Source: an uncultured Nitrososphaerota archaeon
GTDB lineage: Archaea; Thermoproteota; Nitrososphaeria; Nitrososphaerales; Gagatemarchaeaceae
Length of the DNA stretch: 64,000 nucleotides
Assembly: GCA_963838925.1 (NCBI GenBank)
Contig: CAWISW010000003.1
Span: 96,001 to 160,000 of the forward strand
Direction: 5' to 3'
Shown here: piece by piece, positions 4,589 through 52,465 of the stretch
Layout: every line of letters begins with the position of its first letter
How positions within the stretch are numbered: the first letter of the stretch is position 1
Position numbers and translations under genes: made by a program
The notes under the pieces: generated by a model
Database searches by the model: none
Told to the model about the DNA's origin: nothing
The model's input: only the letters and a program-made list of their open reading frames with translations

Positions 4589-5695
4589 GTGTCAGGCAGC
4601 GGGGCCCCCAAAATCCAAGTCCAGAAGCTCGTGAAGCGCTTCGGGGGCGTGTTGGCGGTCAACGGCGTGACCTTCTCCGTTGGCGACGGAGAGATCTTGG
4701 GGCTGCTCGGTCCGAGCGGCTGCGGCAAGACGACCGTCCTTCGAAGCATCTCCGGCCTGGAGGAGATAGACTCTGGAAAAATCGTCCTGGACGGTACGAC
4801 CGTGAGCTCGCCGGAGGAGAAGGTCTTCGTCCCTCCAGAGAAGCGGAGGCTCGGTTTCGTCTTCCAGAGCTACGCGCTCTGGCCCCACATGACAGTCAGG
4901 CAGAACATCGACTACTGCCTGAAGGGGTTCTCAAAGCAGGAGAAGAAGACGAAGATAGAAGGAGCCCTCGAGCTCGTCGGCCTGGGCGACGTGGCGGAGC
5001 GCTATCCCTCACAGCTCAGCGGAGGGCAGCAGCAGAGGGTCGCGGTCGCAAGGAGCGTGGCGTATGAGCCGAAGGTGATACTTCTCGACGAGCCGCTCAG
5101 CAACCTGGACCAGAAGGAGCGGGAGCGGGTCCGGGGAGAGCTCAGGCTGCTCCTGAAGAGGATCGGGATAACGACCGTCTTCGTGACCCACGACCAGGAG
5201 GAGGCCTTCATCATCTGCGACAGGGTCATCCTGATGAACCGCGGGAAGATAGAGCAGGAGGGATCGCCGGAGAGCCTCTACGCGTCCCCCGTCAACCTCT
5301 TCGTCGCCGAGTTCATCGGTAGGGGCAACATACTCAAGGCCGAGCTCAAGAGCCTGGACACGGCGAAGCACACGGCGATCCTCAGGATCCCCGACGTGGA
5401 CGCGGACATGACCTGCGAATACGGGGAGGAGTTCCCCGAGAAGGTCTCCTCTGTGGTGATAAGGCGCAACGAGATAGGCCTCAGCAGAGCCAAGCCGGGC
5501 TTCGGGGAGAACGTGCTCGCGGGGAAGGTGGTTGCCAGGGAGTTTAGGGGCGCGGTGACGGACAGCAGGATCCGCGTTGGGAGCGCGGAAGTCATCGTCA
5601 CGAAGCACAAGTTCGAGAGCGATTCGGAGACCAGTGACGGGGAGGACATCTACCTTCACGTGCCTCCACGGGCGATCAAGCCGATAGCGGACTGA
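4589..5695 (+). CDS. ABC ATP-binding protein (FbpC/PotA type)
   Basis: Walker A GPSGCGKT, LSGGQQQR, LLDEP, VTHDQEEA. Confidence 0.95.
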   Translation: MSGSGAPKIQVQKLVKRFGGVLAVNGVTFSVGDGEILGLLGPSGCGKTTVLRSISGLEEIDSGKIVLDGTTVSSPEEKVFVPPEKRRLGFVFQSYALWPHMTVRQNIDYCLKGFSKQEKKTKIEGALELVGLGDVAERYPSQLSGGQQQRVAVARSVAYEPKVILLDEPLSNLDQKERERVRGELRLLLKRIGITTVFVTHDQEEAFIICDRVILMNRGKIEQEGSPESLYASPVNLFVAEFIGRGNILKAELKSLDTAKHTAILRIPDVDADMTCEYGEEFPEKVSSVVIRRNEIGLSRAKPGFGENVLAGKVVAREFRGAVTDSRIRVGSAEVIVTKHKFESDSETSDGEDIYLHVPPRAIKPIAD

Positions 5696-5716
5696 GGACG
5701 GCCCTTCCCTGCCTGC

Positions 5717-8143
5717 TCACTGCTTCTTGCGGTGAGCTTTGATCAAGGTCCAGAGCTTGGAGGGTGTCAGCGGAACGTCAGTGACCTTGACGCCAAAGTC
5801 CGAGAGCGCGTCCTCCACCGCGTTGGCGATCGCCGGGAAGACCGGGATCGTAGGCCCCTCCCCGACGGCCTTGCCGCCGGTGGCCGTGAAGGGCGAGGGA
5901 TACTCCAGGTGCCCGACCTCGATGTCTGGCGTGTCTGCGGCCGTGTTCTTCAGATAGTCGGCGAAGGTCGCGGTGAGCATCTGCCCTTCCCCGTTCCATA
6001 CCATCTCCTCCCTCAGGGCCGCCGAGATTATGTGCGCGACGTGGCCGTGTATCTGCCCCTCGACGACGGCCGGGTTGATCAGGACCCCGATGTCGTGGGC
6101 GACAACGTACCTCAATATGGTCACCCTGCCCGTCTCCACGTCCACCTCCACTACGGCGGCGTTGGCCTGGCTCCCGTAGTTGTTGTGGGCCGCGACCCTC
6201 CTTTCCTTGTCGGGCAGGTCGGCGTGCGGATAGAAGTAGTACGCGGTCTCGTGCAGCCCGGGCTCGACTCCGGGCGGGAGGGTCTCTGCCCTCACCCGGT
6301 CGTATGCCGCCTGGGCCACGTCTGCGATGGTGACCGACCTCTCGGTCTCCGGCACGAAGGCCCTCCCCTCGTCCAGCTGTATGTCCTCGGGTTCGGCGTC
6401 CAGCATGTGGGCGGCGAACTTCTGGATCTTGGCCCTGACCTTCCTCGACGCAGCGACTATCGCGCCCATGTCTATGCTCGTGAAGGAGTCGGCGCCCGTG
6501 CCGGAGGTGCTCGACCAAGGGTTGCTGGAGCTGTCGAAGACCGAGGAGACCTCGATGTCGTCGGGGGAGATCCCCAGCTCGTCCGCAACGACCTGGGACG
6601 TGGTAGTCTCGTGGCTCTGCCCCCAGTTGGTCGCCCCTATCTGGACCGTGACCCTCCCCAGCGGGTTCATCCTCACCGTGGCGCCCGCGAGCCGCTGACC
6701 CGGGAGGTTTGGACCGCCCCTTACCATCTGCTCCCTGCCTGGATTCGCGCCTCCTGGGTCCACGTTGCACGCGATCCCTATCCCGACGTACCGTCCCTTC
6801 CGTCTCAGCTTCTTCTGCTCCTCCCTCCAGTGCTTGTAATCGACCATTTCCAGCGCCTTTTCCAGCAGCTCCCGGAAGTTCCCTGCGTCTATCAGGTTCC
6901 CGCTCGGGGTGCGGTAGGGCAGCTCGTCCGGGGGGACGAAGTTCCTGAACCTTATCTCCGCTGGGTCGAGCTTGAGCTCCTTCGCCGCAAGGTCCACCAT
7001 CCGCTCGAGCACGAAGCCCATGTGCGGCTTGCTGAGCCCCCTGTTGGACCCTCCGGGCCCCTTGTTGGTGGCGACGGCGTAGGCCTCCAGCGAGACGTTC
7101 TTCATCTTGTAGAGGCCCGTGATGTTCGTCAGCTTGACCGTGTTGTAGTAGCCCGCGTAGTAGGCGGAGCCGCCCTCGTTCGTGATGTCCTTGAGCTTGT
7201 GGCCGAGTATCGTGCCGTCCTTCTTCAACGCCATGTCCATGCGGTAGACGGCGTCCCTCGCGCCGTTCGTCCCGGCCATCAGCATCTCCCTCCTGTCCTT
7301 GACGTACTTCACTGGCCTCCCCGCCTTCCAGGAGAGAAGGGAGGCTATCGTCATGTCCATCAGGGACACGCTCCACCTTTCTCCGAACGTGCCCCCCGTG
7401 TCGGGGATGACGAACCTGACCTTCACGTCCTTTACAGGAAAGCCGCTCGTCCGGGCTCTCAGCGACCCCGACCCGGTCGCGTTGCAGTAGAAGGTGAGCG
7501 TGTTCTGGGCCTGGTCGTAGTGCGCCGTGACGGTGTCGGGTTCGAGGGGGGTCGAGCTGTACCTGTGCACCGAGAAGCGCTCGCTCAGCACCAGGTCTGC
7601 GTCACGGAAGGCCGACTTTACGTCGCCGTACTCCAGGTTGATGGAGGAGAAGGTGTTGTTCTCGACGTCCTTGAATATCCTGGGCGCCCCCGGCTTCATC
7701 GCCTCCTCGGGGTCCACCACTACCGGGAGCTCCTCGTAGTCGACGCGGATCAGGTCGAGGGCGTCCTCGGCTATGCCCCGGCTCTCGGCGGCGACGGCCG
7801 CGACCCCCTGTCCAGCGTAGACGGCCTTGTCCACTGCCATCGCGTACTCCTTGATGGGAAAGCCCGTCCTGCTGGTCATCGGGTTGGTGAGGGAGGGTAG
7901 CTCCGCCCCTGTCAAGGTGGCCACGACGCCCTTCAGCTTCATCGCCTTCGAGACGTCGATGCCCTTGATCCTGGCGTGGGCGTGGGGGCTCCTGAGGACC
8001 GCCGCATGGAGCGTCTGCTTGAGCTGGATGTCGTCGGAGTAGAGACCCTTGCCCTGCACGAACCTCCCGTCCTCCTTGACCCTGATTGGCTTGCCGACCC
8101 ATCGCCTCGCGGCGGGCCGACCTTGTCGGCTCTCGGCTGGCAC
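5717..8143 (-). CDS. Xanthine dehydrogenase/CoxL-family molybdopterin-binding subunit
   Basis: 'EDGRFVQGKGLYSDDI', 'RSPHAHARI', 'GQSHET', 'NPAVVEGQIHG', 'GKAVGEG'. Confidence 0.92.
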   Translation of the reverse strand: MPAESRQGRPAARRWVGKPIRVKEDGRFVQGKGLYSDDIQLKQTLHAAVLRSPHAHARIKGIDVSKAMKLKGVVATLTGAELPSLTNPMTSRTGFPIKEYAMAVDKAVYAGQGVAAVAAESRGIAEDALDLIRVDYEELPVVVDPEEAMKPGAPRIFKDVENNTFSSINLEYGDVKSAFRDADLVLSERFSVHRYSSTPLEPDTVTAHYDQAQNTLTFYCNATGSGSLRARTSGFPVKDVKVRFVIPDTGGTFGERWSVSLMDMTIASLLSWKAGRPVKYVKDRREMLMAGTNGARDAVYRMDMALKKDGTILGHKLKDITNEGGSAYYAGYYNTVKLTNITGLYKMKNVSLEAYAVATNKGPGGSNRGLSKPHMGFVLERMVDLAAKELKLDPAEIRFRNFVPPDELPYRTPSGNLIDAGNFRELLEKALEMVDYKHWREEQKKLRRKGRYVGIGIACNVDPGGANPGREQMVRGGPNLPGQRLAGATVRMNPLGRVTVQIGATNWGQSHETTTSQVVADELGISPDDIEVSSVFDSSSNPWSSTSGTGADSFTSIDMGAIVAASRKVRAKIQKFAAHMLDAEPEDIQLDEGRAFVPETERSVTIADVAQAAYDRVRAETLPPGVEPGLHETAYYFYPHADLPDKERRVAAHNNYGSQANAAVVEVDVETGRVTILRYVVAHDIGVLINPAVVEGQIHGHVAHIISAALREEMVWNGEGQMLTATFADYLKNTAADTPDIEVGHLEYPSPFTATGGKAVGEGPTIPVFPAIANAVEDALSDFGVKVTDVPLTPSKLWTLIKAHRKKQ

Positions 8144-47228: not shown

Positions 47229-47816
47229 CTACCACGCCCGCGACAGGCCATGGGAGCGGGCGGCGCGGTTGTTGCGCCTTGCCTTTGCGGTTGAAAGCGC
47301 GGCTATTATCTCTCCGCAGAAGGCGGGGAGGTCGTCCGGGACGCGCGAGGTGATGAGGTCCCCGTCCCTCACCACGGCCTTGTCAACGTACGTTCCGCCC
47401 GCGTTTACCACGTCGTCCTTGATCGACTTGTAGCAGGTGACGGTCTTCCCCTCGAGCACCTTCGCGGAGACCAGCATGGACCCGGCGTGGCATATCGCGG
47501 CGACGACCTTCCCCTCGTCGTTCGCGTCCTTCACGAACTTCACCATCGCCTCCGACCTCCTCATGTAGTCGGGCGCGAAGCCGCCGGGGATGACGACCGC
47601 GTCGAACTGCTTCGCCTTCGCGACGTCCGCGGAGAGGTCGGCCTTGACCTCGAGCCCGTGCTTGCTCTTGTAGGTCTCGCCCGCGGTCGGGGCCACCACC
47701 GAGACCACCGCCCCTGCCTCCCTCAGGCGAATTAGAGGGTACCAGAGCTCCAGATCTTCATACATATTCTCTGCGAGCACGGCGACTCGCTTACCTTCCA
47801 GCGGCGCGTCCATCAA
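47229..47816 (-). CDS. pfpI: PfpI/DJ-1 family protein
   Basis: 'EDLEL.YP', 'VIPGGFAPD', 'AAICHA', 'ITSRVPDDLPAF'. Confidence 0.9.
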   Translation of the reverse strand: MMDAPLEGKRVAVLAENMYEDLELWYPLIRLREAGAVVSVVAPTAGETYKSKHGLEVKADLSADVAKAKQFDAVVIPGGFAPDYMRRSEAMVKFVKDANDEGKVVAAICHAGSMLVSAKVLEGKTVTCYKSIKDDVVNAGGTYVDKAVVRDGDLITSRVPDDLPAFCGEIIAALSTAKARRNNRAARSHGLSRAW

Positions 47817-47924
47817 ATCCCAGCTCCCTCTTCAGGAATTTAAGATTTGAGGGAGGAGGGCGCCCCGTTCTGAAGGGTTCCGGACAATATTAAATAATCG
47901 CGGGTTAGGTTTTTCCCTCGGGCC

Positions 47925-48767
47925 ATGGCAAAGAACATCTTCTCCGAGGTAGAGAAGCAGGCCGACGCCGGGGGCGCGTCCAGGGCGTCTTGGCGCGGGG
48001 TCCTGAGCCTCAACATCCCCACGCTGGGCCTGGGGGCGGTCGAGTACCACCTAAGGGCGGCCAAGGCCCACGGCGACCTCAAGCCCGTCAACTTCGTGAA
48101 GCTGGACAAGAAGACCGGGAAGGAGGTCGTGAGCCGGGAGGTCCCGAGGATGTACCGCTACAAGGAGGGCCCCGAGGGGGAGCGCATCGACGTGGAGGAG
48201 ATCTCTCCCGAGGACGCGAAGAAGAAGGTGAGGTACGACGGCAAGTACATGGTCTCCGTCCGGACTGAGAAGAGGTACTTCCTGAAGCACGAGCTCGAGA
48301 TGTCGGGCCACTGGGTCGAGGTGCCCGTCGACCGCCTCGTGGACAAGCAGGACGGCGAGGAGATAGAGCCCTTCGAGCGGACCACGCGCGTCGAGGTCGA
48401 CAAGGACGGGTTCGTGCCCATCGAGAGGCTCGAGGAGTACAAGTTCAAGGAGGTCTACCAGCTCTCGCCCGACACCGACAAGAGGGTGAAGGAGACCACC
48501 GCGAGGGTCAAGCAGCTCGCGCGCTACCTCCTGGAGAAGCACACGGCGCTCGTCGCGTTCTTCTCGTGGGGGAGGGGCTACCAGTTCTACACGGCGGTGA
48601 TCTACCCGTACGAGCGCAAGGACGGGAAGCTCTGGCTCCTGATGGGGATGAGCGAGGGCATCCTCAAGCTCGACACCGCGTGGGCGCTGGAAAGCGAGCA
48701 GGAGGGCGAGGGCCTCCCGCCTGTGCCGCAGGCTAGGAAGAAGCCCAAGGTCACGATATCGAAGTAG
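47925..48767 (+). CDS. Divergent Ku-like DNA end-binding protein (putative)
   Basis: 'RASWRGVLS', 'VNF..L.KKTG..V', 'RVEV...FVP.E.LE.Y....Y.L.PD', 'LVAFF...R...A.I.P....L.L' are colinear with prokaryotic Ku motifs; basic C-terminal tail. Confidence 0.65.
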   Translation: MAKNIFSEVEKQADAGGASRASWRGVLSLNIPTLGLGAVEYHLRAAKAHGDLKPVNFVKLDKKTGKEVVSREVPRMYRYKEGPEGERIDVEEISPEDAKKKVRYDGKYMVSVRTEKRYFLKHELEMSGHWVEVPVDRLVDKQDGEEIEPFERTTRVEVDKDGFVPIERLEEYKFKEVYQLSPDTDKRVKETTARVKQLARYLLEKHTALVAFFSWGRGYQFYTAVIYPYERKDGKLWLLMGMSEGILKLDTAWALESEQEGEGLPPVPQARKKPKVTISK

Positions 48768-48788
48768 CGTTGTCGTCAGGGTTCCCCG

Positions 48789-49616
48789 ATGAGTGACCTG
48801 CCGGAGTACGTCGCCGAGCACTTCGCCCACGCGGTCAAGCAGGACCTCGCGACCTGGCTGCTGAAGAATCCGTTGCCCTGTCTGGTCGAGCCAAAGATCG
48901 ACGGCATCAGGGTCTTCCTCTTCAAGAGCGGGGACAAGCTCGTCATCTCCAGCAAGCACGGGGCGATGTACACGCCGCAGTCGAGCCCCAAGGTCTTCGC
49001 AACCGTTCCCGAGTTCCTCCACGCCCCACACCAGATGATCCTCGACGGGGAGTACGTCGCGAAGAAGGGGGCGCTGTTCCTCTTCGACGTCCTCAACGTG
49101 GACGGCAGGGACGTCCGCTCGCTCCCCCTGACGGAGAGGAAGAAGATCCTCCGGGAGATACTCGAGGGGACGGGCCTCGAGGTGCCCTACAAGCTCGCAA
49201 AGTCCACGCAGGAGGTCCTCGCCCTCAAGGAGAAGTTCGTCAAACAAGGATACGAGGGCATACTCGCGAAGAATCCCCAGTCGGCGCACGGGCAGCCGGG
49301 CTCGTGGCTGAAGATGAAGAAGTACGACACGCTGGACGTCTTCGTCATGGGCTATGAGAGGACGCAGGACATGGAGATGACCGGCGTCCCCCGGTCCTGG
49401 TTCGTGGGCGTCTATGACGAGGACGGGCACCGCGTCCCGCTGGGCAAGGTGGGGGCCTTCGTCGAGAAGGTCGACCCGCGCAAGGTCGTGAAGGGCGCGG
49501 TCGTCGAGGTACGGTACCAGGAGCTGACCGAGGACAAGAAGCTCCGCGGCGCGTTCATCCTGAGGGTCAGGCACGACAAGCTGCCGAACGAATGCTCGGT
49601 CGCGCAGCTAAGGTGA
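48789..49616 (+). CDS. Minimal ATP-dependent DNA ligase (adenylation + OB domains)
   Basis: Motifs I 'EPKIDGIR', III 'LDGE', IIIa 'FDVL', IV 'EGILAK', V 'WLKMKK', VI 'RVRHDK'. Confidence 0.92.
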   Translation: MSDLPEYVAEHFAHAVKQDLATWLLKNPLPCLVEPKIDGIRVFLFKSGDKLVISSKHGAMYTPQSSPKVFATVPEFLHAPHQMILDGEYVAKKGALFLFDVLNVDGRDVRSLPLTERKKILREILEGTGLEVPYKLAKSTQEVLALKEKFVKQGYEGILAKNPQSAHGQPGSWLKMKKYDTLDVFVMGYERTQDMEMTGVPRSWFVGVYDEDGHRVPLGKVGAFVEKVDPRKVVKGAVVEVRYQELTEDKKLRGAFILRVRHDKLPNECSVAQLR

Positions 49617-49629
49617 GCTGTGGAGACCC

Positions 49630-50163
49630 TTGAAGAAAGACCTCGACCTGAAGTTCGCAAAGGAGGTCGCGGCGGACTTTCAGAAGAAGACCGCCGACCT
49701 ATACGCTAGGTGCGAGTTGGCCGGGAGCGCTCGCCGCAACTCTCCCACAGTCCACGACGTCGACTTCGCGGTCATCCCCCAGGGCGACGACTTTGGCAAG
49801 TGGAAGGCCGAGGTGACGAAGCGCGTCGAGAAGATCGGGGGCGCCGTGGCCACTTTCGGGGAGGTCATCTCCAACTTCACCTACAGGGGCGTGCAAATCA
49901 ACCTCTTCCTCTGTCCCGGGCCGGACTCTTGGGGCGTCACGCTGATGTGGGCGACCGGGCCGACTGGCCACACCATCGGGATGACGATTAAGGCCAAGAA
50001 GAAGGGTCTGCTGATCAACTCGAGGGGCATATGGACTCTGGCCGAGCCCCCGAAGCTGGTGCCGGCGAGGACGGAGCACGACGTCGGGAAGATTCTCGAC
50101 TGGAAGTACAAGCCCCCCGAGACGCGCGGGAAGGACACCAAGAAGGAGCCTGCCTTCTACTGA
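49630..50163 (+). CDS. Minimal family X DNA polymerase-like protein (palm + thumb only)
   Basis: 'AGSARR....HDVDF', 'QINLF', 'WATGP', 'AKKKGLLINSRGI', 'TE.DV...L...Y.PPE.R'. Confidence 0.85.
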   Translation: MKKDLDLKFAKEVAADFQKKTADLYARCELAGSARRNSPTVHDVDFAVIPQGDDFGKWKAEVTKRVEKIGGAVATFGEVISNFTYRGVQINLFLCPGPDSWGVTLMWATGPTGHTIGMTIKAKKKGLLINSRGIWTLAEPPKLVPARTEHDVGKILDWKYKPPETRGKDTKKEPAFY

Positions 50164-51201: not shown

Positions 51202-51358
51202 AGGTCTTCCGTGGCCGGGCGAGTATGTCTGGGGGACAAACCAAATGTGTTGAGCGGCTGGTGAACTTTGGTGCAGTGCTGCGAAATGTGCGGGCGGGAG
51301 GCGGCCAGCTGACGGCGTGGCTCAGCTTATATCTGGAAAGCGCAGAGCCGGCGTCCGG

Positions 51359-51763
51359 ATGGTCCGCACAAGAAGAAGAGGGACGGCCATCGTCGAGACC
51401 CCGAAGGGGATACTGTTGGTCAGCCTGGACGGCACCAACTTCACCTTGCCGGGTGGCGGCGCCAAGCTGCACGAGAGCAGGAGGGACGCCGCCATCAGGG
51501 AGCTGATGGAGGAGACCGGAATGAAGGCGGTCAGCCTCACCCCGCTCTTCGAGTTCCTGGGAGGGATACACGAGGGCCCCCGGGGAGGCTCGTTCAGGAA
51601 CGCCCACGAGGTGTTCCTCGTGACAGCGACGGGGAGTCCCAAGCCGGGGCAGGAGGTGAAGGCGGTTGCCTACCTCCATGGATCTGGCCCGACCCTCACT
51701 CCTTCCGCGAAGAAGATCATCCAGAGGTACAATTCCATGAAGGGTCCGTCGCAGCTCGCCTAG
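51359..51763 (+). CDS. NUDIX hydrolase
   Basis: Nudix box 'PGGGAKLHESRRDAAIRELMEETG'. Confidence 0.9.
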   Translation: MVRTRRRGTAIVETPKGILLVSLDGTNFTLPGGGAKLHESRRDAAIRELMEETGMKAVSLTPLFEFLGGIHEGPRGGSFRNAHEVFLVTATGSPKPGQEVKAVAYLHGSGPTLTPSAKKIIQRYNSMKGPSQLA

Positions 51764-52465
51764 CCGCCGTCCGAAGAGTTGGAGTTGCGCAGATGCCTGA
51801 AACGCTTCAGTGACACAGCCACCCTCACTCGCGCATTACGAAGCGCCCTCTCCGCTGGCGAGTAGAAGTTGCCCAGGGCGACCTTGGCCTCTTCTTCCAA
51901 GGATATTTCGGCAAAGTTACCAAGCTGGAACGCCCCCGGATTCGCGATCACCGTGCTGCCGACCCTGTCGATCGCAACCGATTCGTGTATGTGACCGCAC
52001 ATGACCAGCCTGGGCTGTGTCCTCTTGATGTATTCGAGGACGGCCTTCGAGCCCGCGTGCCTTCCGCTGTAGAGCACGTCCACCTTCGTGCCGAACGGCG
52101 GCTCGTGTGAGAGGAGGATGTCCACCCTCCCGAGCTTCTCCAGGGCGGTCTCGTATCCGGCCTCGTCGACCTCAAACGGAAAGCCGCCGGAGGGCAAAGC
52201 ACCTCCGAGCCCTCCGACCGTGTACCCGCCAAGCTCCACCGCCGTGCCGTGGAGTATCCTGGCGCCGGTCTGTGGATTGTCGTGGTTGCCGAAGACGGCC
52301 ACAACGTTGTCGAAGCTGGAAGCGAGCGCGACAATCTGCGCCTGGATTTCCGCAGGTCCGTAATCTCCGCCCAGCGCCACCATGTCGTGAGTCTTCACCG
52401 CGCTTTGGATCCAGCCGGAGAAGTTCCGGCTGCCGTGAATGTCAGTCGCGAAAGGCAATCCTCAT
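51760..52465 (-). CDS. Calcineurin-like metallophosphoesterase; 1-nt insertion near the 5' end (TTG 52458 could rescue)
   Basis: 'DIHG', 'GGD', 'GNHD', 'SHEPP', 'CGHIHE', 'NPG'; ATG-AGG-ATT-GCC-TTT (MRIAF) is one base out of frame with ATDIHG. Confidence 0.85.

Follow-up and report, generated by a model that had tools for sequence, protein, structure and literature searches.

Template-free repair of double-strand breaks in archaea is poorly understood, and to our knowledge only the Methanocella-type Ku/Lig/Pol/PE set has been reconstituted among archaeal end-joining systems. The minimal PolX of ASFV works in base excision repair and not beside a Ku. Noncanonical PolXs of prokaryotes, which have altered catalytic triads, are, in the part of the study covered here, tied statistically to NHEJ genes, and physically so in Alphaproteobacteria (Prostova et al., 2022; PMC9226535); the same part of that work shows noncanonical PolXs to be without polymerase activity, with an exonuclease in the PHP domain. 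Here we describe a locus, contained in a 64-kb window (the whole stretch of DNA analysed), in which genes for a divergent Ku, a minimal ATP-dependent DNA ligase and a very small PolX-family protein follow one another. Judged from sequence and structural models, the trio probably forms one operon encoding a dedicated NHEJ-type break repair module in two families of Nitrososphaerales (Thaumarchaeota), one of them a family of soil-dwelling archaea, a reading to which we assign a probability of about 0.65.

As the initial annotation had stated, the three genes are co-directional and closely spaced, which the list of open reading frames and the sequence itself bear out. Open reading frames and family scans place the Ku gene (280 aa, ATG start) at 47925-48767, the ligase gene (275 aa, ATG start) at 48789-49616 and the gene for the PolX-family protein, hereafter mini-PolX (177 aa, TTG start), at 49630-50163, all on the forward strand, with gaps of 21 nt (48768-48788) and 13 nt (49617-49629). 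On the same strand, a TATA-box-like, AT-rich element, AATATTAAATAAT, can be read at 47886-47898, 26-38 nt upstream of the Ku ATG, a distance that suggests a short leader or none. When 32 upstream regions (the window and 31 loci) are compared by eye, every one has a heptamer of the TTAAATA/TTATAAA/TTAATTA/TTAACTA type about equally far from the start of Ku; a scan for bacterial sigma-70 promoters gave no match, as expected for an archaeon. Of the AT-rich promoter proposed earlier, the element and its recurrence are directly visible, and AATATTAAATAAT is a putative promoter of the trio. The short gaps and the common upstream TATA-like element together argue for one operon. Three contigs of relatives, from one RNA library, cover 48290-48768 and 49287-49464 only, which are parts of the Ku and ligase genes, and may reflect DNA carry-over; this library is one run of 20, with a share of matching words of 0.05, and no run reached half. 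We count no evidence of transcription from this coverage, and the lack of a contig over PolX proves nothing. No tRNA genes or Rfam matches were found anywhere in the 64-kb window.

The Ku-like assignment of the first gene, for which presence of the Ku fold was one of the checks, holds up well. Residues 144-237 match positions 68-162 of the 190-position Ku family profile (PF02735) with 35.6 bits (cut-off 25; E 1.2e-8), and fold searches with the predicted structure return the Ku beta-barrel/bridge fold and rule out that the protein is not a Ku. This core spans approximately residues 17-260 and is accompanied by a conserved basic C-terminal tail, KKPKVxISK. A profile of the family compared with the PDB reaches Mtb Ku at E 2.2e-4, over two collinear stretches, and fails to retrieve human Ku with the limit relaxed to E <= 10. 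Furthermore, a symmetric homodimer is predicted with a score of 0.62 (best of three controls, 0.00) and 256-276 contacts, at least 87% of which agree between runs, with a partner pLDDT of at least 76. Of 30 proteins whose solved structures are pairs, 20 reach the mark for this score, as does 1 of 23 whose structures are single chains; because solved Ku homodimers exist, the score may reflect likeness to them. By analogy with the Ku family, the homodimer would bind DNA ends as a ring. The gene is under purifying selection (dN/dS), and its clade is matched by only 58 cluster representatives among 1.84 billion proteins. A search for longer, fused forms had 2,077 candidates, none of which scored, and this is weak evidence. 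The divergence of this Ku counts against our reading: on the bacterial Ku equivalog, TIGR02772, it obtains 15.8 bits, below the cut-off of 150, and hhalign gives its family a probability of only 41% (E 2.8e-4) against canonical thaumarchaeal Ku.

The second gene carries DNA_ligase_A_M (PF01068) at 79 bits against a cut-off of 26.2, together with weaker OB-domain matches, and its best NCBIfam model is NHEJ_ligase_lig (TIGR02779) at 104.2 bits, below the cut-off of 227.75. Archaeal long ligases and Mtb LigD/LigC align with it over their NTase and OB domains; with an alignment covering NTase and OB only, the N-terminal DNA-binding domain is absent from this 275-aa protein, just as had been claimed, and the protein is among the smallest ATP-dependent ligases. 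The initial annotation had further credited it with ligase motifs I, III, IIIa, IV, V and VI, and the motif I lysine, K36, and the key residues of the other five are indeed all kept: G39, R41, D86-G87-E88, F99-D100, G157, K161, K175, K177, R261, D263 and K264, like K36, do not vary in any of the 39 family sequences. The positions are taken from alignments, and the motif names follow common usage. With every catalytic motif conserved and a dN/dS of 0.14-0.28, the ligase appears to be catalytically competent.

Gene 3 is likewise a member of the PolX family, as proposed, with the PolX fold, a match to DNA_pol_B_thumb of 38.4 bits (cut-off 25) and a PolX-wide match over residues 10-170; what had gone unremarked is that its third catalytic Asp is an Asn. 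The protein consists of the palm and C-terminal nucleotide-binding subdomain only, with a D43-D45-N91 "triad", and the 8-kDa lyase, helix-hairpin-helix DNA-binding and PHP domains are all absent. Superposition of its model on Pol lambda, Pol beta and Tth PolX, each in a closed ternary complex, gives an rmsd of 2.0-2.7 A, and the structural alignment begins no earlier than residue 144 of Pol beta or residue 154 of Tth PolX. The third catalytic position is N91 in 115 of 115 and 38 of 38 sequences of two sets, and four independent alignments place N91 on the third Asp of Tth PolX, of ASFV Pol X, of the genome's own PolX and of a phage homolog that keeps the Asp; the family alignments contain no other invariant acidic residue in the palm. 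The Gly-Ser motif, R35, R36, H42, D43 and D45 are also invariant, as is the C-terminal motif of the nucleotide pocket, which looks canonical. According to the portion of PMC9226535 used here, the third carboxylate is essential in Pol beta-type enzymes.

Two simple accounts of this small protein fared poorly. That it is a decaying pseudo-enzyme is not supported, the dN/dS of 0.14-0.29 being equal to that of the ligase and the nucleotide pocket invariant. That it is a recently truncated copy of the housekeeping PolX is rejected: the genome also holds a 563-aa canonical PolX with a D-D-D triad, which aligns to mini-PolX only over its residues 162-316, at only 28% identity, and which keeps the Asp. 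Viral relatives are no closer to mini-PolX than cellular PolX is: three phage records share 23-30% identity with it, and PolX models of giant viruses share 18-23%. We lean towards mini-PolX being a non-polymerising factor that binds a gap or nucleotide, or aligns ends; that it is a weak or specialised gap-filling nucleotidyltransferase is a credible, somewhat less favoured possibility.

The conservation of the trio in relatives, raised as a check on the initial proposal, is plain. In the genome collection, 37 of 41 loci carry all three genes in synteny, and so do 17 of 19 short loci from relatives, the PolX gene lying just beyond the locus in the other two. Among 60 relatives, 22 have all three genes, 34 have none and 4 are partial, 3 of these on cut or fragmented contigs. 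Synteny and co-occurrence rule out a chance juxtaposition, and dN/dS indicates purifying selection on all three genes. The trio is confined to two families of Nitrososphaerales, occurring in about two-thirds of the genomes sampled from its own family and in a few of the second; the search for it came up empty in 12 of 36 own-family genomes, which marks it as accessory. Just 5 of 41 loci have even one of 9 flanking proteins in common with the window, and identity between homologs is 98-73% within the genus and 80-58% elsewhere in the family. Ku-like and mini-ligase pairs without PolX recur in two unrelated contexts, one such distant pair lying beside a DNA-methylase-like gene and another beside a PCNA/Rad1-like gene on a small contig. 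Metagenome scans with profiles of distant Ku-like proteins gave no match for one clade (P0256) and a single contig for a second (P0265). Within the genome, two long ligases are separately encoded and, together with the canonical PolX, suggest that the small copies are dedicated extras. The operon encodes no nuclease, phosphoesterase (PE) or AEP polymerase, and a search of the window's genome, which is 87% complete, for the LigD-type AEP domain (TIGR02778) gave no match, with a positive control in B. subtilis. A role as a defence system was set aside, none of the four proteins submitted having a PADLOC match.

In the module that we favour, the divergent Ku homodimer would form a ring that threads onto and holds a double-strand end; it would recruit the 275-aa ligase, perhaps via its basic C-terminal tail, and the ligase would seal the break, with mini-PolX as a lineage-specific accessory at the gap or primer terminus. 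If mini-PolX does not polymerise, other proteins would provide synthesis and trimming in trans, the genome's canonical full-length PolX-PHP being one candidate. A PolX without the third carboxylate, in an operon without nuclease or phosphoesterase, counts against this module. It is unlikely, in our view, that the trio is instead a complete eukaryote-style NHEJ in which mini-PolX acts as a true DNA polymerase that fills gaps in place of the AEP polymerase of bacterial and archaeal NHEJ. Such a role would suit the intact PolX fold, superposing on closed ternary complexes at 2.0-2.7 A, the invariant Gly-Ser motif, R35, R36, H42, D43, D45 and pocket motif, a dN/dS like that of the ligase and the lack of a LigD-type AEP match in the 87%-complete genome; N91, too, is invariant and not drifting, as against the many triad variants of degenerate PolXs in the covered part of PMC9226535. 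However, that Asn occupies the third catalytic position in four alignments with no other invariant palm acid to stand in, mini-PolX has neither the 8-kDa nor the DNA-binding subdomain, the genome encodes a canonical PolX elsewhere, and the replicative primase (AEP) could act in trans. More doubtful still is the strongest version, a self-sufficient archaeal Ku, ligase and PolX machine whose 177-aa protein is a working polymerase with a D-D-N site and whose eukaryotic parts list was assembled independently; if true, mini-PolX would be the smallest cellular DNA polymerase known and would break the three-carboxylate rule for Pol beta-type enzymes. The compact end-joining system with eukaryote-like parts that the initial annotation envisaged is upheld in part, by the Ku fold, the conserved trio and the lack of a LigD-type AEP match in the genome, and no special affinity to eukaryotes emerged.

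Mini-PolX shares the minimal two-subdomain architecture of ASFV Pol X and lacks the 8-kDa lyase domain, ligases without a DNA-binding domain are typical of nick sealing as well, and bacterial Ku proteins are reported, in the part of PMC4245934 drawn on here, to process abasic sites. All this would fit an ASFV-type set for base-excision or single-strand-break repair in which Ku is mainly an AP/dRP lyase or end protector; we consider that improbable, given that the core kept in distant contexts is Ku and ligase with no PolX, that no AP endonuclease or glycosylase is linked to the trio, and that the Ku ring fold and predicted dimer suit ends and the best ligase model is an NHEJ ligase domain. A further possibility concerns where the module came from. 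Some mycobacteriophages use Ku to circularise or protect linear DNA, and a viral, plasmid or other mobile origin, with a module that circularises or protects a linear element and became chromosomal secondarily, would account for flanks that differ between genomes, a patchy distribution, the homing-endonuclease-like and TniQ-like insertions that occur inside the cluster and the distant pairs near methylase-like or PCNA/Rad1-like genes; small PolX proteins, moreover, occur in phages and giant viruses. Yet neither 50,697 phage records nor the IMG/VR scan yielded a Ku relative, PADLOC gave no matches, no integrase or capsid genes were seen beside the window's copy, and the loci sit on long chromosomal contigs of up to 2.25 Mb. 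Identity that falls with taxonomic distance is as expected for mostly vertical descent, and we regard a mobile origin as the least probable of these accounts.

If the trio does perform NHEJ, it would be a second, differently built archaeal end-joining system, and one archaeal order would use two unrelated-looking NHEJ solutions in sister families. Mini-PolX would be a cellular counterpart of the minimal PolX of ASFV, and its invariant Asp-to-Asn exchange poses the question of whether a PolX fold serves as a non-catalytic end aligner or catalyses with an unusual metal site. The tiny parts (280, 275 and 177 aa) make the module attractive for reconstitution and for structural studies, and it may also be of use as a small tool for joining ends. 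The literature searched, including the covered parts of PMC11936186, PMC10640624, the main text of PMC9226535 and 10.1101/2023.09.30.560322, holds no description of an operon of Ku, mini-ligase and mini-PolX. The combination had been put forward as undescribed, which agrees with that search; links between PolX and NHEJ in bacteria, however, are already published, as the part of PMC9226535 covered here makes clear.

Of the known systems, AP-NHEJ (Ku and LigD, or the split Methanocella-type Ku/Lig/Pol/PE) resembles the trio in that the gene for a homodimeric Ku (in the trio, homodimeric by prediction) adjoins that for an ATP-dependent ligase without an N-terminal DNA-binding domain, so that both pair an end binder with a ligase of its own. 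It differs in that the core of the trio's Ku is about 45 residues longer and obtains 15.8 bits on the bacterial Ku model, in that its ligase is shorter (275 aa) and below the NHEJ-ligase cut-off, and in that a PolX-family protein takes the third position with no linked AEP polymerase or phosphoesterase. Canonical sets occur in the same order: in the sister family, a Ku_bact of 255.6 bits adjoins a 905-aa fused LigD (PE, LIG, POL), a second LigD, scored at a different locus, has 962 aa, and a canonical Ku_bact of 269.1 bits adjoins a stand-alone LIG of 325 aa; canonical ligase neighbours score 273-279 bits on TIGR02779 (cut-off 227.75).

Compared with eukaryotic NHEJ (Ku70/80, ligase IV and Pol mu/lambda), the trio has a Ku that is predicted to be a homodimer and not a heterodimer, that is without vWA, SAP and Ku80 C-terminal domains, and whose profile matches mycobacterial and not human Ku; its ligase lacks a DNA-binding domain and BRCT, and its PolX lacks BRCT and the 8-kDa domain and has Asn at the third Asp. 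ASFV Pol X (174 aa) is like mini-PolX in size and two-subdomain architecture, and residues 22-166 of the family profile cover nearly the whole viral chain (E 7.5e-8 to 2.4e-7); the sequences are distant, and the virus keeps the third Asp (yqlDLf) where the mini-PolX family has Asn (vqvNLf). Noncanonical PolXs share with mini-PolX a substituted catalytic triad. Those in the covered part of PMC9226535 are full length with PHP, a degraded pocket and variable triads, whereas mini-PolX is without PHP and keeps its pocket and Asn invariant; "DDN", "Thaumarchaeota" and a PHP-less form do not appear in the main text of PMC9226535 as far as covered. The trio is probably a variant of prokaryotic NHEJ, new, by the literature searched, as an operon of Ku, mini-ligase and mini-PolX.

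The best-supported reading of the sequences and predicted structures is that genes 1 to 3 would form a dedicated NHEJ-type end-joining module of a divergent Ku, a minimal ligase and a minimal PolX. What the initial annotation described holds as stated. The three forward-strand ORFs are gene 1 at 47925-48767 (280 aa), gene 2 at 48789-49616 (275 aa) and gene 3 at 49630-50163 (177 aa, TTG start), with gaps of 21 and then 13 nt read from the window sequence; an AT-rich string, AATATTAAATAAT, occupies 47886-47898 and so precedes the ATG of gene 1 by 26-38 nt. By eye, a TATA-like heptamer lies at a similar distance upstream of Ku in all 32 regions viewed (the window and 31 related loci), a placement that would suit an archaeal promoter and a transcript that is leaderless or nearly so. 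The operon is flanked by genes for a DJ-1/PfpI protein (47229-47816, -), a Nudix hydrolase (51317-51763, +) and a calcineurin-like metallophosphoesterase (51760-52458, -); none of these was found in the 41 related loci compared, and therefore no functional link with the operon is implied. Homologs of each of the three proteins are recorded under 'Nitrososphaerales archaeon', 'Thaumarchaeota archaeon' and similar names. Pipelines have already recognised the single parts, since gene 1 homologs are labelled 'Ku protein' in a few NCBI records and gene 3 is 'PolX' at JGI; we found no description of the combination in the literature searched, which took in the article text of Prostova et al. (2022; PMC9226535).

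Gene 1 is a very divergent Ku, a question settled by its predicted structure. It scores 35.6 bits against Pfam Ku (cut-off 25) and only 15.8 bits against the bacterial Ku equivalog model (cut-off 150). Exhaustive phmmer against 1.84 billion cluster representatives gave no more than 58 matches (E <= 0.001), many of which are fragmentary; among ten distant representatives compared with Pfam, two exceeded the Ku cut-off, one matched Ku below it, six matched nothing and one had low-complexity hits of no relation to Ku. Searched against PDB sequences, the family profile (69 members) reached mycobacterial Ku alone, in two collinear stretches (E 2.2e-4 and 4.4e-4), and did not reach human Ku; profile-profile alignment to nine canonical thaumarchaeal Ku was collinear over 162 columns and weak (probability 41%, E 2.8e-4). 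The AF2 model (mean pLDDT 82.6) retrieved 110 PDB matches at E <= 0.001 with Foldseek, and every match listed is a Ku entry, which upholds the identity first proposed from motifs. Predicted as two copies, gene 1 scored 0.62 (best of three controls 0.00; contacts agreeing at least 87% between runs; pLDDT at least 76), the score mark being one that 20 of 30 solved pairs attain, against one of 23 single chains; since solved Ku dimers exist, the predicted dimer is a likeness, not proof. With an 89%-identical homolog as query, a language-model feature search listed eukaryotic Ku clusters (0.93) after the cluster of the homolog itself, which is a lead only. Some distant Ku-like proteins (P0249 and P0245 in alignment A1) have Cys-rich core inserts (CxxC ... 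CxxC) resembling a zinc ribbon, and in one relative's Ku-like gene (G009:C3:1963263-1964108) two in-frame TGA codons may mark a pseudogene or stem from an error in sequencing.

Gene 2 is a minimal, active-looking ligase. The adenylation domain of ATP-dependent ligases is matched at 79 bits and the OB domain more weakly; its top NCBIfam model is the NHEJ ligase domain, whose cut-off of 227.75 bits it misses with 104.2, and in archaeal replicative ligases and mycobacterial LigD and LigC it aligns only with the NTase and OB parts. The motifs noted initially are all present: all 39 sequences compared retain K36, the lysine of motif I, together with the key residues of motifs III, IIIa, IV, V and VI. 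Gene 3 is, as first assigned, of the PolX family, cut down to the palm and C-terminal subdomain and altered in its active site. Its family profile aligns end to end with ASFV Pol X chains (174-178 residues; E 7.5e-8 to 2.4e-7) and with residues 180-316 of Thermus PolX (E 7e-10). Small PolX-like proteins are also encoded by large phages (L085:2719-3447, in Acinetobacter phage Ab1-TPeters, and two E. coli phage records), the closest being a 243-aa protein annotated as hypothetical, 30% identical to mini-PolX, with a canonical third Asp.

The expected conservation of the trio is borne out. Within ±1.5-kb loci it is complete in 17 of 19 relatives, PolX lying just outside the locus in the other two, and in a species-representative collection it is complete at 37 of 41 loci, all from Thaumarchaeota/Nitrososphaerales MAGs. 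At the other four, the contig ends 219 nt past Ku, the contig ends within an inserted homing-endonuclease-like ORF that follows Ku, a truncated Ku adjoins a TniQ-like gene, or Ku and ligase occur without PolX. Only 5/41 loci have any of nine flanking proteins in common with the window; the trio thus stays together while its surroundings change. Sixty relatives, a set that overlaps the 41 loci so that the two counts are not independent, include 22 with all three genes and 34 with none; partial sets are Ku and ligase only in G001 (both cut at contig ends) and G023, and ligase and PolX only in G029 and G058 (contigs cut or fragmented). The Ku-like gene occurs in 24/36 genomes of the window's family and 0/24 genomes of 19 other families in the order; a larger sample added 2/13 genomes of a second family, both with the trio, and in a phylum-wide sample only 1 of 300 other genomes matched. 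That one match, the sole one outside the order, is locus L069 (G146:C25:1-3165), where a mini-ligase, a Ku-like gene (262 aa) and an N6-DNA-methylase-like ORF follow one another in this order, with PolX absent. On L086, a 6.8-kb metagenomic contig, a Ku-like gene (39% identical) adjoins a 276-aa mini-ligase, PolX again being absent from the contig. Because of these two pairs, Ku and mini-ligase are the ancient unit and PolX a later addition. Downstream of the L086 pair lies a PCNA/Rad1/Rad9-like clamp ORF (5201-6163, +; Rad1 46 bits, PCNA_N 38.3 bits).

Several loci carry insertions. Three relatives have, between Ku and ligase, an ORF of ~160-175 aa with a LAGLIDADG-like motif (L038:5854-6375, +; L031:2507-2983; L052:3445-3951) that matches phrog_5046 ('HNH endonuclease') at E 7.2e-15 and Pfam LAGLIDADG_1 at only E 0.066, and looks like a free-standing homing endonuclease targeting the operon. 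An unannotated ORF of ~180-200 aa between ligase and PolX in two others (L040:6684-7286, +; L067:1394-1933, +), lacking Pfam or PADLOC matches and matching only phrog_5018 (E 0.0013), may be either a further selfish insert or a nuclease with an accessory role. At L063, a 518-aa TniQ-family ORF (6146-7699, -; 61.3 bits) lies beside a Ku whose match ends at residue 254, with neither ligase nor PolX after it, suggesting disruption by a transposon-like element. Between the window (47925-50163) and L028, L029, L030 and L038, pairwise identity is 94-97% for Ku, 74-88% for ligase and 76-80% for PolX, and dS is likewise lower for Ku in some of these genome pairs.

In the proposed end-joining module, a Ku dimer would bind DNA ends, the minimal ligase would seal the ends so bound, and mini-PolX would act at the gap. 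That the genes are instead an ASFV-like excision-repair set, or serve a mobile element, we rate low because no relatives of Ku were found among phage records or IMG/VR, PADLOC returned no defence-system matches, and the loci sit on long chromosomal contigs. As to the part played by mini-PolX within an end-joining module, its Gly-Ser motif and DxD pair (D43, D45) are invariant, and the third catalytic Asp position is Asn91 in 115/115 database homologs and 38/38 syntenic copies, as placed by four independent alignments (Tth PolX, ASFV Pol X, the phage homolog, and the genome's own PolX, of 563 aa with a D-D-D triad and 28% identity). Judged by its invariant pocket motif and Asn and by dN/dS (0.14-0.29, equal to the ligase at 0.14-0.28; Ku 0.05-0.10), the protein is clearly functional, though not necessarily in polymerisation. 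It is probably a non-catalytic factor for alignment or nucleotide binding at the gap, an unusual nucleotidyltransferase there being a somewhat less likely option.

Canonical, bacterial-type Ku loci occur in other families of the order (L082-L084). Ku of this kind is present in 21/40 sampled genomes of one family; in the locus scored, Ku (Ku_bact 255.6 bits) adjoins a LigD of 905 aa that combines phosphoesterase, ligase and AEP polymerase domains, and in a second, L083, a LigD built of the same domains measures 962 aa. In one genome of a further family, a canonical Ku (269.1 bits) adjoins a stand-alone 325-aa NHEJ ligase. Within a single archaeal order there are thus two quite different sets of NHEJ genes. 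The window's genome (three contigs, 1.84 Mb, estimated completeness 87%) yielded no LigD polymerase domain; at other sites it encodes two long ligases and a full-length PolX-PHP. The eukaryote-like framing of the initial annotation stands for the parts list only: the family profile found no sequence-level affinity of gene 1 to eukaryotic Ku among PDB sequences, and a PolX-NHEJ association has already been reported in bacteria, as the article text of Prostova et al. (2022; PMC9226535) has it. That text also describes prokaryotic PolXs with altered triads that are without polymerase activity and work via their PHP exonuclease. Mini-PolX has no PHP domain, and it differs from those degraded enzymes in that neither its nucleotide-pocket motif nor the Asn varies.
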